Origin: a virus
IMG/VR virus record: IMGVR_UViG_3300045988_117511
Length of the DNA: 41,693 bases
Strand: one strand, 5' to 3'
Positions 2,708 through 18,555 of the stretch are shown in pieces (position 1 is the first letter of the stretch; each line of letters starts with the position of its first letter). Below the pieces are notes generated by a model that worked only from the letters and a program-made list of their open reading frames with translations, did no database searches and was not told the origin of the DNA. A program made the translations under genes and the position numbers.

Positions 2708-3166
2708 ATGGGATTTGGTAAAAAATTAAAACAGTTGCTTGACGAAAAAAGTGTATCTGTTGCAGATCTTTCTCGTAAAACTGGCATTCCACGAACTACT
2801 TTATACTCAATAATTAGCCGTGACAGCACACCTAAACCAGGAGATGTTCTTGCTATTTCAAATGCATTGAATATCGATATATCAGAATTTGAAATGAATG
2901 AGACTGTATATATCAATAATTTATATTCAGCAATTTATAAGCAAGTGAGTGATTATTTTGATAAAGAGCTTGCAAAATATCAAAATAACGGTTCAAAAAA
3001 TAATAATAAGCTCTCTGGTTTGCAGCTATTCGCTGAACCCTCCATCTCATACAATGCACCACTTGACGTTTCCGACCTTACCAATGACGAAATAGAGCAA
3101 GTCAAACAATATATCGAGTTCCTCAAATCACAACGGAATAAAAATGTCCACTCAACCACCGACTAA
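2708..3166 (+). CDS. XRE-family HTH transcriptional regulator (second repressor-like protein)
   Basis: N-terminus GFGKKLKQLLDEKSVSVADLSRKTGIPRTTLYSIISRDSTP is an HTH_3/XRE motif. RBS AAAGGAGG. It is divergent from the RHH-antirepressor operon. Confidence 0.85.
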   Translation: MGFGKKLKQLLDEKSVSVADLSRKTGIPRTTLYSIISRDSTPKPGDVLAISNALNIDISEFEMNETVYINNLYSAIYKQVSDYFDKELAKYQNNGSKNNNKLSGLQLFAEPSISYNAPLDVSDLTNDEIEQVKQYIEFLKSQRNKNVHSTTD

Positions 3167-13159: not shown

Positions 13160-13251
13160 AACGACTCTCCTTTCTTTATCCCGCATATGGTTCTGGGCGC
13201 TTCTCCATAGGCTTCCATCTTGTTAATCGTTTCATTTGACACCTCACTTTC

Positions 13252-13280
13252 TTGTCTCGTCCTTCGCGCCGTGATAAAAT
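13252..13280 (+). promoter_or_regulatory. Extended -10 promoter for the DUF4145 gene
   Basis: TTGTCT (13252-13257), 17 nt spacer containing TG at 13272-13273, then TAAAAT (13275-13280). Confidence 0.45.
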
Positions 13281-13303
13281 AGGATCGAAAGGACGGTGAT
13301 TGT

Positions 13304-13978
13304 GTGAAAACTAGAAAAAGAACATTTTTTGCGGGCAGCTCTACCTTGGAATTCGAATCCGAACTTCCACTAGAATGTCCCCATTGCGGAGCATATGGTG
13401 TGCCAGACATTGTCACATCAACTCATGTGGTCTACGGATCTAGCGTTTACCACATACTGATATTGGAACATAGCTGCTGTGATAAAATATCTCAGGCCAT
13501 TTACCGTGTTAATGATGGATCCGGCGAATTACTTTCATTGTTACCGCAAATTATAAAGCGAGGTGATTTCCCAGATTCCATAAAGAAAATCTCGCCACAT
13601 TTTATCGAACTTTACAATCAATGCTATGAAGCTGAACAACGTGGTTTCCTTGAACTTGCCGGATCTGGATATCGTAATGCTCTTGAAGTTCTAATTAAGG
13701 ACTATGCAATTTCTGTACTACACGAGCCTGAAAAAGAAGTAATCAGCTGTTCACTTTCAAAAGCAATCCAAAAATATCTTTCCGAGGTCAAGTTATCTCA
13801 ATCAGCCGATGTGGTTCGTATTCTGGGTAATGATCACACTCACTACGAACGCAAATACGATGACATTGACTTCCAGATCCTAAAAAAATATCTGAAAATC
13901 TTTGTTGACAGCATTGACTGTGAATATTTGATCCGAAACCCTATAGTAAAGACCAATCCTAACCTTCCTCAGGAATAA
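13304..13978 (+). CDS. Zinc-ribbon + DUF4145 domain protein (antisense moron in the early operon)
   Basis: GTG start. N-terminal CPHCG...HSCCD. The C-terminal pattern FIELYNQCYEAEQRGFLELAGSGYRNALEVLIKDYA...ADVVRILGNDHTHY matches DUF4145 from memory. Confidence 0.7.
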   Translation: MKTRKRTFFAGSSTLEFESELPLECPHCGAYGVPDIVTSTHVVYGSSVYHILILEHSCCDKISQAIYRVNDGSGELLSLLPQIIKRGDFPDSIKKISPHFIELYNQCYEAEQRGFLELAGSGYRNALEVLIKDYAISVLHEPEKEVISCSLSKAIQKYLSEVKLSQSADVVRILGNDHTHYERKYDDIDFQILKKYLKIFVDSIDCEYLIRNPIVKTNPNLPQE

Positions 13979-14410: not shown

Positions 14411-14591
14411 CGGCCACCTCCTTTCTACCCCACAGGGTAACTATGTTTTTAATATATACCCCACAAGGTAATTTGTCAACGGTATTTTTACCCTGCGCCA
14501 TAACTTTTTTCGTTCTGTAGTAAATAAATTACTTTACAACGGAAATATTTTGCGGTAGAATAGCCGTAACATATAGAAAGAGGTTTACGGT
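14411..14591. promoter_or_regulatory. Lysis-lysogeny switch region with back-to-back promoters and operators
   Basis: Minus strand carries TTGACA (14479-14474), 17 nt spacer, TATATT (14456-14451). Plus strand carries TTTACA (14533-14538), 17 nt spacer, TAGAAT (14556-14561). The 14-mer TACCCCAC(A/G)(G/A)GGTA occurs at 14426-14439 and 14457-14470, and the second copy fills the early-promoter spacer. A half-site lies at 14489-14497. Confidence 0.7.
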
Positions 14592-14912: not shown

Positions 14913-14945
14913 TTACCTTTGTGGGAAAAATCTTTCCGTAAAGTA

Positions 14946-14974
14946 TTGCAACTTACAGAATAATTTCATATAAT
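14946..14974 (+). promoter_or_regulatory. Near-consensus sigma-A promoter of the type III TA-like locus
   Basis: TTGCAA (14946-14951), 17 nt spacer, TATAAT (14969-14974). Confidence 0.65.
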
Positions 14975-15013
14975 GAGGGTACATTAAGATTGTCGTTTGA
15001 GAGCAGAACGACC

Positions 15014-15115
15014 TAAATCTAAAGACGGCTCAATGGATGATTCTCCTTGTAGAGCGCAAGGAGCTTAAATAAAAGAAAGCTCAATGGATGTACCCTCTGC
15101 ATATTGCGGAGGGTA
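15014..15115 (+). repeat. Two tandem ~51-52-nt units (GCTCAATGGATG at 15028 and 15079)
   Basis: The exact 12-mer occurs twice with a 51-nt period. The flanking TAAAT and AAAGA are also conserved. The hairpins are CTCCTTG/CAAGGAG (15043-15063) and TACCCTCTGC/GCGGAGGGTA (15091-15115). Confidence 0.7.
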
Positions 15116-15122
15116 TTTTTTT
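15091..15122 (+). terminator. Rho-independent terminator between the repeat RNA and the toxin gene
   Basis: A 10-bp stem (one G-U pair), loop ATATT, then T7. It lies 12 nt upstream of the ATG at 15134. Confidence 0.75.
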
Positions 15123-15133
15123 AGGAGAAAACA

Positions 15134-15547
15134 ATGAAATTAAAAATACTTTCCAGAAAATTCTATAGTACATATTCTGATTGCAAAGAAATTTTGAAAA
15201 AATCAGAGAGACCTTATGCCTGTCTGACTATTGAAGTAAACAGTACCCTGTTCGCAATTCCATTCCGGCATCATATACGACATAAATATGCGTTTTTCAC
15301 AATTGGAGAAGCTGGGCTTGACTATACAAAAGCAGTCGTGATTTCTGATACCAGTTACTTGGCTCCAGATGAACCTACTATCGAAAGTAAGGAGTTCGCG
15401 ATCATAAAAAAAGAAGAGCAACAGATAATATATGGCTTTAAAAAATACGTAAATCAGTATATAAAAGCCATGAAGCATAGAGATATACCTAGAAATGCTA
15501 ACATTTTAAAATACAGCGCATTACAATACTTTGAAGAATATCTGTAA
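15134..15547 (+). CDS. Type III toxin-antitoxin toxin-like protein (ToxN/AbiQ/CptN/TenpN superfamily endoribonuclease candidate)
   Basis: 137 aa. MKLKILSRKFYSTY...SERPYACLTIEVNSTLFAIPFRHHIRH...GLDYTKAVVI resembles type III toxins from memory. The locus architecture (promoter, repeats, terminator, ORF) is the type III hallmark. Confidence 0.55.
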   Translation: MKLKILSRKFYSTYSDCKEILKKSERPYACLTIEVNSTLFAIPFRHHIRHKYAFFTIGEAGLDYTKAVVISDTSYLAPDEPTIESKEFAIIKKEEQQIIYGFKKYVNQYIKAMKHRDIPRNANILKYSALQYFEEYL

Positions 15548-15558
15548 GAGGTGACACC

Positions 15559-15942
15559 ATGACGAAACATGAGAAACTCATGGCTGAATATGAAGATTTG
15601 TATATCGAAGAACGACAGATGATAAACGATGGTCTGTACGCTGACGGATGCATCTGGATCAATCAGAAGCTGCCTTCCTGCAAAAAGTTCTCCGTCCTGG
15701 CAGAAGAGATCGGACATCACAAGACCAGTGCCGGCAATATCCTCGATCAGGATGACACCGCAAACCGAAAGCAGGAACTGACTGCCCGCAAATGGGCTTA
15801 TGAAAAAATCGTTCCGGTAGATAAAATCGTCGCTGCCATCGACTCTGGCTATGATGAGGTGTGGAGCTTGGCAGAACAATTCGACGTAGATGAAGACTTT
15901 ATGCGAGAAGCTTTAAAGCATTATGGGATTTTAGATATATAG
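15559..15942 (+). CDS. ImmA/IrrE (M78, DUF955)-like protein with variant EExxH motif
   Basis: IWINQKLPSCKKFSVLAEEIGHHKTS...ANRKQELTARKWAYEKIVP aligns to the ImmA pattern I.IN...F.LAHELGH...E..A..FA.E.L.P. A Glu replaces the first His. Confidence 0.65.
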   Translation: MTKHEKLMAEYEDLYIEERQMINDGLYADGCIWINQKLPSCKKFSVLAEEIGHHKTSAGNILDQDDTANRKQELTARKWAYEKIVPVDKIVAAIDSGYDEVWSLAEQFDVDEDFMREALKHYGILDI

Positions 15943-16011: not shown

Positions 16012-16512
16012 ATGATAACGGTAGAAGATGTTTTAAAAAGTAAAAAAAAGATAGCTAAAAAGCGTAAACCTGATTATACTGAAGATAAACAACACTATCG
16101 TATGAATATTGATCTCGTATGCGAGGATTTAGATGTGAAACTAACAATGTTCATCCGGAAATTGAAAAAATCGCCCGACACAGACTTCAGTATAGGTATG
16201 CGTGTTAATGGACCTAGTTTCTTTTCAAACAACACCATTGTCCTTGTGCGTTTCCAAGGCCCTCATGGTGGTCAATCTCAGACCAAAAATCTTAATGACC
16301 TGCACAACAATTATCACATACACCTCTACACTGAAGATGACCGAATCCATCATCGCAAACATGCAAATTATAAAGGTGTTGGTGATTTCAATAGCTTTGA
16401 GCAAGCTATTGCTGCCTTTTTAAATTATTGCCATATAGATGATCCCCATGGCATTTTTGATGATGAGATAGCAATGGCGGAACAATTTAAAATGAATTTA
16501 GAGAATCTTTAG
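16012..16512 (+). CDS. Orphan protein (166 aa), basic N-terminus and His-rich core
   Basis: RBS TAAGGAG. Contains KKKIAKKRKP and HNNYHIHLYTEDDRIHHRKH. I cannot assign a family. The gene is AT-rich. Confidence 0.7.
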   Translation: MITVEDVLKSKKKIAKKRKPDYTEDKQHYRMNIDLVCEDLDVKLTMFIRKLKKSPDTDFSIGMRVNGPSFFSNNTIVLVRFQGPHGGQSQTKNLNDLHNNYHIHLYTEDDRIHHRKHANYKGVGDFNSFEQAIAAFLNYCHIDDPHGIFDDEIAMAEQFKMNLENL

Positions 16513-16521
16513 GAGGTCAAT

Positions 16522-17274
16522 ATGGACATTAACGCCCTACTACTAAATACCCCTGGTACATTATTTCGTACGAAAGAGGCTACTGATGGCACATACCAAT
16601 TAATTGCGCCACTATTTCATGAAGATGGCGATATGATGAGTATTTATTTAAAAGAAAATGATTCGGGGAATATAGAAATCTTTGATAATGGGATGAGCCT
16701 TATGCGTCTTTCTTATACTTTTGACATTGATACAGATAATAAAGAGCGCATTTTAAACGATATCATCCTTGCTAAAAACGCCGAAAATTATGACGGAAAT
16801 ATTATAATGACCGTAACGCCAGAGCAAATATATACCGGCATCATGACTTACTCTCAACTGATCAACCAAGTATGCGGACTCGATATTCTTTCCCGAGAAG
16901 CTGTGACCGATTTGTTTTATGAAAATTTAAGCACCGCTATCGAAACCACGCTTTCTGGAAAGATATATGATAAGGATGTAACCCTCCCTCAATATAAAGA
17001 TATGAAAATAGATTACATCTTTAAAGGCAAAGAGAAGCCTTTGTATCTTTTTGGAATCAAAGATACAAACAAAGCGCAGCAAACCACTATATGCTGTCTA
17101 CAACTAGAACAAAGATCTATTCCATTTAAGAGTGTTGCCGTATTCAATAATATTGATACCGGAATAACTAAATTCGCACGAAATACATTGATGAATACTG
17201 TAGGCAAAGTATTCACTGATTTAGATGGATTTGCAGAGTATGGCAAAAATTATTTAGAAAATGAAATAGCTTAA
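16522..17274 (+). CDS. DUF1828/DUF1829-like two-domain protein
   Basis: RBS TAGGAGG. It starts 9 nt after the upstream stop. The N-terminal pattern YQLIAPLFHEDGDMMSIYLKENDSGNIEIFDNGMSLMRL resembles DUF1828. The family call is from memory. Confidence 0.65.
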   Translation: MDINALLLNTPGTLFRTKEATDGTYQLIAPLFHEDGDMMSIYLKENDSGNIEIFDNGMSLMRLSYTFDIDTDNKERILNDIILAKNAENYDGNIIMTVTPEQIYTGIMTYSQLINQVCGLDILSREAVTDLFYENLSTAIETTLSGKIYDKDVTLPQYKDMKIDYIFKGKEKPLYLFGIKDTNKAQQTTICCLQLEQRSIPFKSVAVFNNIDTGITKFARNTLMNTVGKVFTDLDGFAEYGKNYLENEIA

Positions 17275-17418: not shown

Positions 17419-18555
17419 ATGGCAACCAAGAAGAACACTGCGGTCCTCCGTGGTGACAAGGAATACAACTACTTCCGGATCACCCGAACCGTTGGTCATG
17501 AGTGGAAAGACGGCAAGAGAATCCCGATCAAGAAGCAGTTCTATGGTACCAGCAAGGGAGATGCGGAAAAACAGTTCCGTGCTTACCAGGAAGAGCAGCT
17601 GCAGAAAAAATATGAAAAAGAGCATGCTGCAGCTGAAGCCCAACGGAAGACCTTTGGAGAATACGCAGAAGAATATACCTACGAAGTCTTCATGAACAGC
17701 ACTTATGCCAAAGGGACCAAGCGCCGATATGAACAAAGCTACCGGGTTCATGTGAAAGATTCCTGGATCACTTCTATACCGATCGGCGAAGTGGACGCGA
17801 AAACTCTGCAGGACTTCTATATATGGCTGCCTGTATCGAAACAAAACTTGGATTCCATCAATAAGTGGATGTCTGCATTTTATAAATGGCTTGCCCTGAA
17901 TAATATTTCCGGGAATATCCTGAGTGCAGTCACCATGCCTGAGAAATATGACAACAAGAAAAAGGATGAGATCATAGTATGGGAGCCAGACGAGATCCAG
18001 ACCATTCTCACAAGCTCTGATGGCCACAGGCTGCGTTTCATGATGTTTCTGATGAATTATACCGGTCTTCGTATATCCGAATGTCTGGGGCTTAAATACA
18101 GCGACATCAGATCTGGATTCGTATGTGTGGATCGCCAATACTACCAGGGTGAAATCGTCCCTCCAAAACATAATTCCTACAGGAAGATTCCGGTTCACCC
18201 GGAGCTGGAGAAGGCGCTGCAGATCCATAAAGAACGATTCGAAGCTGAAGCCAGGCGCAACAATTACAAAACAGAATTTGTATTCACCAGCGATTCCGGA
18301 AAGCTCCTGGAGTATGGCAATACACGCAGATCATTGAACAGATATTATGCCGATATCAATGTTCCACAGAAGAGCCCTCACACCTACCGGGCCACATTCT
18401 GCACCGAGCTGTGCCGGGCAGGCGTGCCACTGGAAGTCGCATCTAAGCTCATGGGACACAAATCTATCGAGGTCACGGCCAAGCACTACGCCCTGGTAAA
18501 GCAAGATGTACAGATTGCAGCCATAAATCGGCTTCCCGGCATAGACGTGAAATAA
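17419..18555 (+). CDS. int: Tyrosine recombinase (phage integrase)
   Basis: The C-terminal catalytic region is LRISECLGL...HTYRATFCTELCRAGVPLEVASKLMGHKSIEVTAKHY (R..HxxR..Y). It is adjacent to attP. Confidence 0.92.
   Translation: MATKKNTAVLRGDKEYNYFRITRTVGHEWKDGKRIPIKKQFYGTSKGDAEKQFRAYQEEQLQKKYEKEHAAAEAQRKTFGEYAEEYTYEVFMNSTYAKGTKRRYEQSYRVHVKDSWITSIPIGEVDAKTLQDFYIWLPVSKQNLDSINKWMSAFYKWLALNNISGNILSAVTMPEKYDNKKKDEIIVWEPDEIQTILTSSDGHRLRFMMFLMNYTGLRISECLGLKYSDIRSGFVCVDRQYYQGEIVPPKHNSYRKIPVHPELEKALQIHKERFEAEARRNNYKTEFVFTSDSGKLLEYGNTRRSLNRYYADINVPQKSPHTYRATFCTELCRAGVPLEVASKLMGHKSIEVTAKHYALVKQDVQIAAINRLPGIDVK

Follow-up and report, generated by a model that had tools for sequence, protein, structure and literature searches.

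A TenpIN-family type III toxin–antitoxin locus between the repressor and immA genes of a temperate phage

TenpIN, a family of toxin–antitoxin systems of type III, has its founder in Photorhabdus luminescens TT01, where the locus is a functional toxin–antitoxin pair and aborts coliphage infection; members of the family have tandem repeats of 39–57 nucleotides (nt; mean 50.9) in 1.9–3.0 copies, and toxins of 70–259 amino acids (aa) (Blower et al. 2012, PMC3401426). A catalogue of 2025 lists TenpIN loci with imperfect repeats from genomes of Caudoviricetes and prophages, and describes their tenpI repeats as non-identical, having a conserved A tract and, by prediction, a pseudoknot (Nadig et al., PMC12283969). 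Here we describe a locus at positions 14,946–15,547 of IMG/VR virus record IMGVR_UViG_3300045988_117511, whose full stretch of 41,693 nt, the DNA of a temperate phage of about 41.7 kilobases (kb), is referred to below as the window. An earlier reading of the bare sequence (the original prediction) had seen a toxin–antitoxin system of type III here and could not place its toxin in a family; that family is TenpIN. We conclude with high confidence that the locus is a TenpIN-family type III toxin–antitoxin (abortive-infection) cassette in the lysogeny module of the phage.

With two repeats of 51 nt and a toxin of 137 aa, the locus lies within the published TenpIN ranges, its toxin at the short end (family mean 164 aa). 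It shares with described members the match to the toxin model, the order of promoter, repeats, terminator and toxin gene, the non-identical repeats, the A tract and the predicted H-type pseudoknot. Earlier reports already place the family in Firmicutes and in genomes of Caudoviricetes and prophages, and as loci of this kind are already catalogued, the one in the window is a new member of TenpIN. It differs from the founder in belonging to a Clostridia/Lachnospiraceae-type subfamily distant from the tested Photorhabdus system, and in sitting inside a phage repressor–immA operon. ToxIN, known from Pectobacterium atrosepticum and Bacillus thuringiensis (Protein Data Bank, PDB, code 4ATO), follows the same operon logic and also makes a pseudoknot RNA from tandem repeats. 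Those repeats are 36 nt long in the founding ToxI system; across ToxI they are shorter (mean 38 nt), nearly identical and present in more copies (1.9–5.6) than in the window, and the ToxN cleavage motif is not transferable to the RNA of the window. CptIN, from Eubacterium rectale, is likewise a Firmicutes type III system, with about two copies of repeats of about 45 nt; its toxin belongs to a different family, and the A-rich tract of its RNA makes A-minor contacts in the pseudoknot, a model that has been invoked for tenpI (PMC12283969).

The elements of the locus are as follows:
14946–14974, plus strand: predicted sigma-70-type promoter, TTGCAA, 17-nt spacer, TATAAT (consensus scan)
14988–15038, plus strand: tenpI antitoxin unit 1 (tandem-repeat comparison, covariation, and 65.5 bits to covariance model R1, whose training set includes this very sequence)
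15039–15089, plus strand: tenpI antitoxin unit 2, also a match to Rfam 6A, RF02925 (Rfam, tandem-repeat comparison, covariation)
15090–15122, plus strand: intrinsic terminator, 12-pair stem, loop of 3, run of seven T (pattern scan, folding)
15123–15127, plus strand: ribosome-binding site AGGAG, 6 nt before the ATG (read from the sequence)
15134–15547, plus strand: tenpN, 137-aa type III toxin, a predicted endoribonuclease (NCBIfam, homologues, AlphaFold)

The product of the 137-aa open reading frame (ORF), present after the terminator as originally read, matches the NCBIfam equivalog model for the TenpIN family toxin, NF047358.1, with an expectation value (E) of 2.8e-41 and 141 bits, the cutoff being 90; the alignment joins residues 6–137 to model positions 1–141, and the profile search that the original prediction had suggested thus names the toxin as TenpN. 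A search of a large protein database gave 279 homologues, none of them annotated. Across 33 aligned homologues, 31 positions never vary, and the window copy retains them all; the identical protein occurs on 12 contigs from different samples. PHROGs places it in a family of unknown function, phrog_8049. The AlphaFold model built on the homologue alignment has a mean predicted local distance difference test score (pLDDT) of 94.4 and a predicted template-modelling score (pTM) of 0.89, and its best whole-protein match in the PDB is ToxN (4ATO_A, probability 0.99, template-modelling score, TM, 0.63), but the Foldseek E-value is a weak 0.06; the original prediction had proposed a likeness to type III toxins for the N-terminal half. 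Further fold matches are MazF chains (TM about 0.3, weak E), and a search of BFVD gave weak PemK-like matches only.

At the level of sequence the toxin stands apart from the other type III families. There is no match to the Pfam ToxN_toxin profile or to any PADLOC model or PDB sequence of ToxN, and PDB searches with the single sequence and with a profile returned no relative of the ORF. NCBIfam reported only TenpIN at E ≤ 1 and the PDB gave no CptN match, a result to be read with the presence of a dedicated CptN model in the searched set unconfirmed. A tblastn search of GenBank phages found one distant Vibrio phage match only, so that GenBank offers no annotated close phage for comparison.

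Upstream of the toxin gene, the promoter reads TTGCAA (14946–14951) and TATAAT (14969–14974) across a 17-nt spacer, agreeing with the consensus at 10 of 12 positions, just as the original prediction had it; transcription of tenpI is predicted to start near A14981. The terminator stem-loop spans 15090–15116 (12 pairs, 6 of them G–C, loop of 3) and runs into seven T residues at 15116–15122. Its strength was correctly judged beforehand, while the gap from the T run to the ATG at 15134 is 11 nt and not 12. A predicted promoter 5' of the repeats and a predicted rho-independent terminator before the toxin gene are both what TenpIN loci have, and the terminator should keep the antitoxin RNA in excess over toxin mRNA.

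Between promoter and terminator lie two tandem 51-nt copies (14988–15038 and 15039–15089) with 73% identity, which provides the tandem direct repeats expected 5' of a TenpIN toxin gene. The 12-mer GCTCAATGGATG, which the original prediction had pointed out, has just two exact copies in the window, at 15028 and at 15079 (a spacing of 51 nt), where about 0.36 matches would be expected by chance with one mismatch allowed. Both units score 65–72 bits against the covariance model, with their own sequences in its training set. The arrangement of these elements is far beyond chance. Tandem Repeats Finder did not detect the array, and non-identical tenpI repeats are typically missed by that program (PMC12283969).

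Each unit begins with a hairpin whose loop can pair with a downstream strand. Unit 1 has its hairpin at 14992–14998/15006–15012, loop GAGC at 15001–15004, an A-rich linker at 15013–15027, the pseudoknot partner GCUC at 15028–15031 and then the junction AAUGGAU; unit 2 has its hairpin at 15043–15049/15057–15063, loop GAGC at 15052–15055, an A-rich linker at 15064–15078 and GCUC at 15079–15082. Compensatory changes distinguish the two hairpins, GUCGUUU/GAACGAC and CUCCUUG/CAAGGAG, and are the source of most of the 27% by which the units diverge. This layout revises the original prediction in several respects. Its units started at TAAAT, a register probably shifted by about half a unit; the identity of the unit starts, put at 22 of 26 positions, is 20 of 26 when counted at the 51-nt offset; and the stem-loop said to end each unit was, for the second, the terminator, the first hairpin (14992–15012) having been left out. 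The TAAAT that was taken for a unit boundary and a ToxN-like cleavage motif belongs to the A-rich tract that follows the hairpin and precedes the 3' strand of the pseudoknot. As a boundary it is unlikely, and so it is as a cleavage site, because a cut in this A tract, internal to a covariation-supported pseudoknot, would split the antitoxin fold. The cut sites of ToxI and CptI sit in single-stranded tails. By analogy, tenpI cleavage would be expected in the conserved junction (G)AUGAUU, a motif with three copies in the window locus, one ahead of unit 1, one where the units meet and one ahead of the terminator.

The array is conserved upstream of homologues; with this and the toxin's family match, the reading withstands those refuting conditions of the original prediction that can be examined by computation. 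We compared the 230 nt upstream of tenpN in 94 loci with a gene for a TenpN relative. Genomes supplied 80 of these loci, chiefly metagenome-assembled genomes of Lachnospiraceae and other Clostridia but also Treponema, Veillonella and others; viral contigs supplied the other 14. Nearly all of the 94 have a promoter, two units of about 50 nt, a terminator and a ribosome-binding site; in most, the promoter stands at the equivalent position, and related loci have the terminator at the same position. The units follow a common plan: a hairpin with loop xAGAGCx, an A-rich tract and then GCUCAAUxGAUGA. More distant subfamilies (L059, L061, L069–L079) have unrelated repeat sequences in the same layout. 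A covariance model built from 88 units gave 96 matches in 742 kb, 95 of them immediately upstream of tenpN and in its orientation.

The predicted fold covaries across these loci. In a MAFFT alignment that was not fitted to structure, all seven hairpin pairs show compensatory changes and 94% of cells are paired, a figure that spans 94–97% over this and the model-aligned set, while controls in which the strands were slid reach 27–41% overall and 34–41% on the MAFFT alignment. The helix between loop GAGC and downstream GCUC is 99.7% paired on the MAFFT alignment, with compensatory changes at two of four pairs there and at three of four in the model-aligned set (for example GGGC/GCCC, GAAC/GUUC, AAGU/GCUU and GGGC/GUCC). 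The repeat RNA of this family thus has both a conserved A-rich tract and a pseudoknot whose covariation comes from few events, and the covarying fold agrees with the H-type pseudoknot with A-rich linker proposed for tenpI (PMC12283969).

Two features of individual loci deserve mention. Six of them (L012, L022, L025, L027, L085 and L089) have an extra small hairpin, such as GTGGAgaaaTCCAC, between the promoter and unit 1, 20–30 nt before the latter, which may be a 5' stabiliser or the remnant of a third unit; the window is without it. In three others (L013, L031 and L034) the tblastn match to TenpN is split into two overlapping or adjacent pieces, which suggests frameshifted (pseudogenised) toxin genes, or assembly errors, with the tenpI repeats kept.

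Unit 2 (15039–15089) also matches the Rfam model 6A (RF02925), at 47.8 bits against a gathering score of 41.2, with E 1.7e-6 over the whole window and model positions 1–52 of 52 covered; unit 1 is not reported by this model even at E ≤ 10. 6A is an orphan motif from the survey of Weinberg et al. 2017 (PMC5737381), typed only as small RNA (sRNA). Matches at the gathering score, often as tandem pairs, are present in 11 of 17 diverse tenpN loci (the window, L001, L012, L014, L018, L020, L024, L030, L037, L089 and L099), in each case just upstream of tenpN and on the same strand. Because its matches sit only there, orphan 6A very probably is the tenpI antitoxin repeat. The Rfam entry gives no function and annotates the hairpin alone, to which tenpI as described here adds the pseudoknot, and the model recognises neither unit 1 nor the repeats of the more remote TenpIN subfamilies. 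In the literature searched we found no paper that links 6A to tenpI, and the link is apparently unrecorded, although an earlier remark is possible in the supplement of Weinberg 2017.

The cassette and the genes on either side of it have the following limits:
14914–15546, plus strand: exchangeable cassette of tenpI promoter, antitoxin array, terminator and tenpN (blastn against contig L109)
14592–14912, plus strand: CI/Xre-type phage repressor (HTH_26/HTH_3), flanking and outside the cassette (profile matches)
15559–15942, plus strand: ImmA-like M78 metalloprotease, flanking (profile matches)

The window corresponds to a metagenomic contig of 41,694 bp (ENA ERZ27229663). The gene order is Cro-like gene (minus strand), repressor, tenpIN, ImmA-like protease, DUF6978, DUF1828, integrase (17419–18555) and lysis genes. 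The gap between the tenpN stop codon and the start of immA is 11 nt and holds no terminator, which makes co-transcription of immA with tenpN by read-through probable. In a viral contig (L109) whose repressor, cro and immA genes are 97–99% identical to those of the window, the slot (2254–2988) holds hicA and hicB (Pfam E 6.6e-23 and 5e-14) instead of tenpIN. Homology between the two runs at 97.8% up to 14913 and resumes at 97.5% from 15547; it breaks at the repressor stop codon and resumes 12 nt before the immA start. In L110 (about 2978–3000) the slot is empty and the repressor gene and immA are directly adjacent. As the slot holds hicAB between near-identical flanks in the one and nothing in the other, comparison of these sequences identifies 14914–15546 as an exchangeable toxin–antitoxin cassette.

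The order repressor–tenpIN–immA recurs in L081/L111 (toxin 82% identical) and L105/L106 (80%); close relatives of the window carry hicAB or nothing in the slot, and three phage lineages carry tenpIN. Elsewhere tenpIN is found after an S24 repressor and before PBECR3 and the integrase; after immA, Mrr/TerB and Abi_2 genes and before the integrase (L102–L104 carry Mrr/TerB and Abi_2); or alone in the chromosome between ileS and pnp. The original prediction was right that the locus is inserted between the repressor and the ImmA-like gene; what it called an unusual location is explained by cassette exchange at a variable slot, the repressor–immA pair being split because of a lineage-specific insertion there.

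Prophage morons and defence hotspots lie in lysogeny modules. The present locus resembles them as an accessory toxin–antitoxin or defence cassette with its own promoter, in the repressor–integrase region, swapped between near-identical phages; it differs in that the slot is unusually tight, from the repressor stop codon to the immA ribosome-binding site, which places a terminator inside the repressor–immA transcription unit.

Other accessory genes are found nearby. A 224-aa DUF4145 protein (phrog_1305) is encoded by an ORF at 13304–13978 (plus strand; region 13177–13978), on the strand opposite to its neighbours. It has a weak match to PADLOC PD-T7-4 (E 7e-5) and is a possible defence gene; the near-identical phage L109 lacks it, which marks it as a second variable insert. 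In the interval from immA to the integrase, a DUF6978-like gene (16012–16512) and a DUF1828 gene (16522–17274), both on the plus strand, resemble the PADLOC candidate PDC-M24A/B (E 0.007 and 7.6e-11), which makes the lysogeny module look like a small defence island. In two prophage loci, L099 (4888–4965) and L089 (4568–4640), a few hundred bases downstream of tenpN, we also noted another orphan motif, the Rfam skipping-rope RNA (RF02924, 64–74 bits), which in L099 lies after PBECR3 and before the integrase, or the reverse, in the interval that separates the two; the window has no such motif.

Several points weigh against assigning the locus to TenpIN and giving it the family's role. The ORF matches no Pfam family at E ≤ 1 and no PADLOC model, the Foldseek E-values are weak despite the TM of 0.63, and the PDB searches yielded no solved TenpN structure to compare with. 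In the single-sequence minimum-free-energy fold, the unit 2 hairpin and the terminator are recovered while unit 1 is paired differently, although we give preference to the comparative data; the identity between the units is low, and the compensatory events in the pseudoknot are few, occurring in 5–6 of 82–88 sequences. We found no experiment on this locus or any other Clostridia-type TenpIN in the literature, and ribonuclease activity, cleavage site, processing, neutralisation, stoichiometry and the abortive-infection phenotype are all attributed to this locus by analogy with its family. These points are outweighed, in our view, by the strong match to the TenpIN model, a predicted fold closest to ToxN and a conserved repeat array with its terminator, which uphold the type III reading with which the original prediction began.

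What the cassette does for the phage is less certain than what it is: it may serve superinfection exclusion or abortive infection, or prophage addiction. That the same TenpIN cassette acts mainly in addiction or stabilisation of the prophage, by post-segregational killing, and not in anti-phage defence seems unlikely to us, yet it deserves serious consideration. Such a role would suit a cassette that lies inside the immunity operon and whose slot in a near-identical phage holds hicAB, a classical type II pair, and toxin–antitoxin systems that stabilise prophages have been discussed (PMC12283969). Against this, the only TenpIN to have been tested gives abortive infection (PMC3401426), the same lysogeny module contains other candidate defence genes (PDC-M24A/B-like and PD-T7-4-like), and Mrr/TerB and Abi_2 adjoin tenpIN in L102–L104. 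The two roles are not mutually exclusive.

We consider it very improbable that the cassette is the decaying remnant of an insertion, with an inactive toxin or a single working repeat. The 73% identity of the units, the failure of the 6A model to recognise unit 1 and the apparently frameshifted copies elsewhere (the split matches of L013, L031 and L034) would fit decay; the window ORF, however, is intact with all of the family-invariant residues kept, its identical protein is on those 12 contigs, and the way in which the two units differ is conserved too, in that homologues show the same two unit types with compensatory hairpin differences. Hardly credible is a third explanation, in which the 140-nt leader is only a cis-acting attenuator or 5' untranslated region and the ORF a conserved phage protein of other function: a terminator directly before the ORF, the listing of 6A as a role-less sRNA and the protein's lack of Pfam annotation would allow it, but it leaves unexplained the strong match to a curated TenpIN model, the predicted ToxN-like fold and the tandem pairs with conserved pseudoknot and junctions in every subfamily, even where the unit sequences are unrelated (L059, L069 and L071), a pattern that is the signature of toxin-processed antitoxin repeats and not of an attenuator.

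For a TenpIN cassette, the mechanism can be drawn from the family; our confidence is high as regards the architecture and moderate as regards the biological role. A constitutive promoter would transcribe the two tandem 51-nt tenpI units; most transcripts would stop at the intrinsic terminator, leaving antitoxin RNA in excess, and a minority would read through into tenpN and probably immA. TenpN, as a ToxN-like endoribonuclease, would cut the precursor at the inter-unit junctions around GAUGAUU. Each freed unit would then fold as an H-type pseudoknot, with the 7-base-pair hairpin, loop GAGC paired to downstream GCUC and the A-rich linker running along the stem, and in this form would bind and inhibit the toxin. 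Should transcription of the locus collapse, for example on infection by another phage or on loss of the prophage, the labile antitoxin RNA would decay, and free TenpN would degrade cellular and phage RNA, so that the infection is aborted.

A further feature may bear on how the toxin gene is expressed. A promoter-proximal segment, ATATAATGAGGGTACAT (14968–14984), which takes in the −10 box, the discriminator and the bases transcribed first, shows complementarity to ATGTACCCTCTGCATAT (15088–15104) in the 5' arm of the terminator; within it, GAGGGTACAT (14975–14984, just after the tenpI −10 box) is the complement of ATGTACCCTC (15088–15097). Diverged loci keep the complementarity with different sequences, such as the 10-nt pair TTACAGTAAG/CTTACTGTAA of L014, and it is also seen in L029, L085, L089 and others. 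The longest complementary run averages 6.75 nt with a locus's own partner and 5.45 ± 0.19 with swapped partners, 20 of 36 loci reach p ≤ 0.05 against shuffled leaders, and a partner-swap rank test on 24 representatives gives P of about 3e-4; these values are to be read with three confounders in mind: the loci are related, their GC contents are correlated, and a G-rich discriminator is set against a C-rich stem.

With the repressor promoter at 14533–14561, such pairing could wire the cassette into the immunity operon through a terminator that depends on the origin of the transcript, an idea that we think doubtful. Transcripts from the tenpI promoter, starting near 14981 and without the segment, would terminate and yield antitoxin only, whereas read-through transcripts from the repressor promoter would contain it and could fold into an antiterminator, so that transcription goes on through tenpN and immA. 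If true, the dosage of toxin and ImmA would be coupled to the activity of the repressor operon, which would explain how a terminator-bearing cassette can stand between the repressor gene and immA.

Type III toxin–antitoxin loci can thus be recognised from raw sequence, and this one is placed firmly in TenpIN, a family with one tested member. The novelty is limited to the assignment of 6A to tenpI, the base-precise exchange with hicAB and the possible pairing of leader and terminator, and the current understanding of type III systems is unchanged by these findings. The 6A assignment, if true, would improve the annotation of many gut Clostridia and phage genomes, and the slot, which holds tenpIN, hicAB or nothing, is a natural system for studying what toxin–antitoxin pairs do in prophages, be it superinfection exclusion or addiction.

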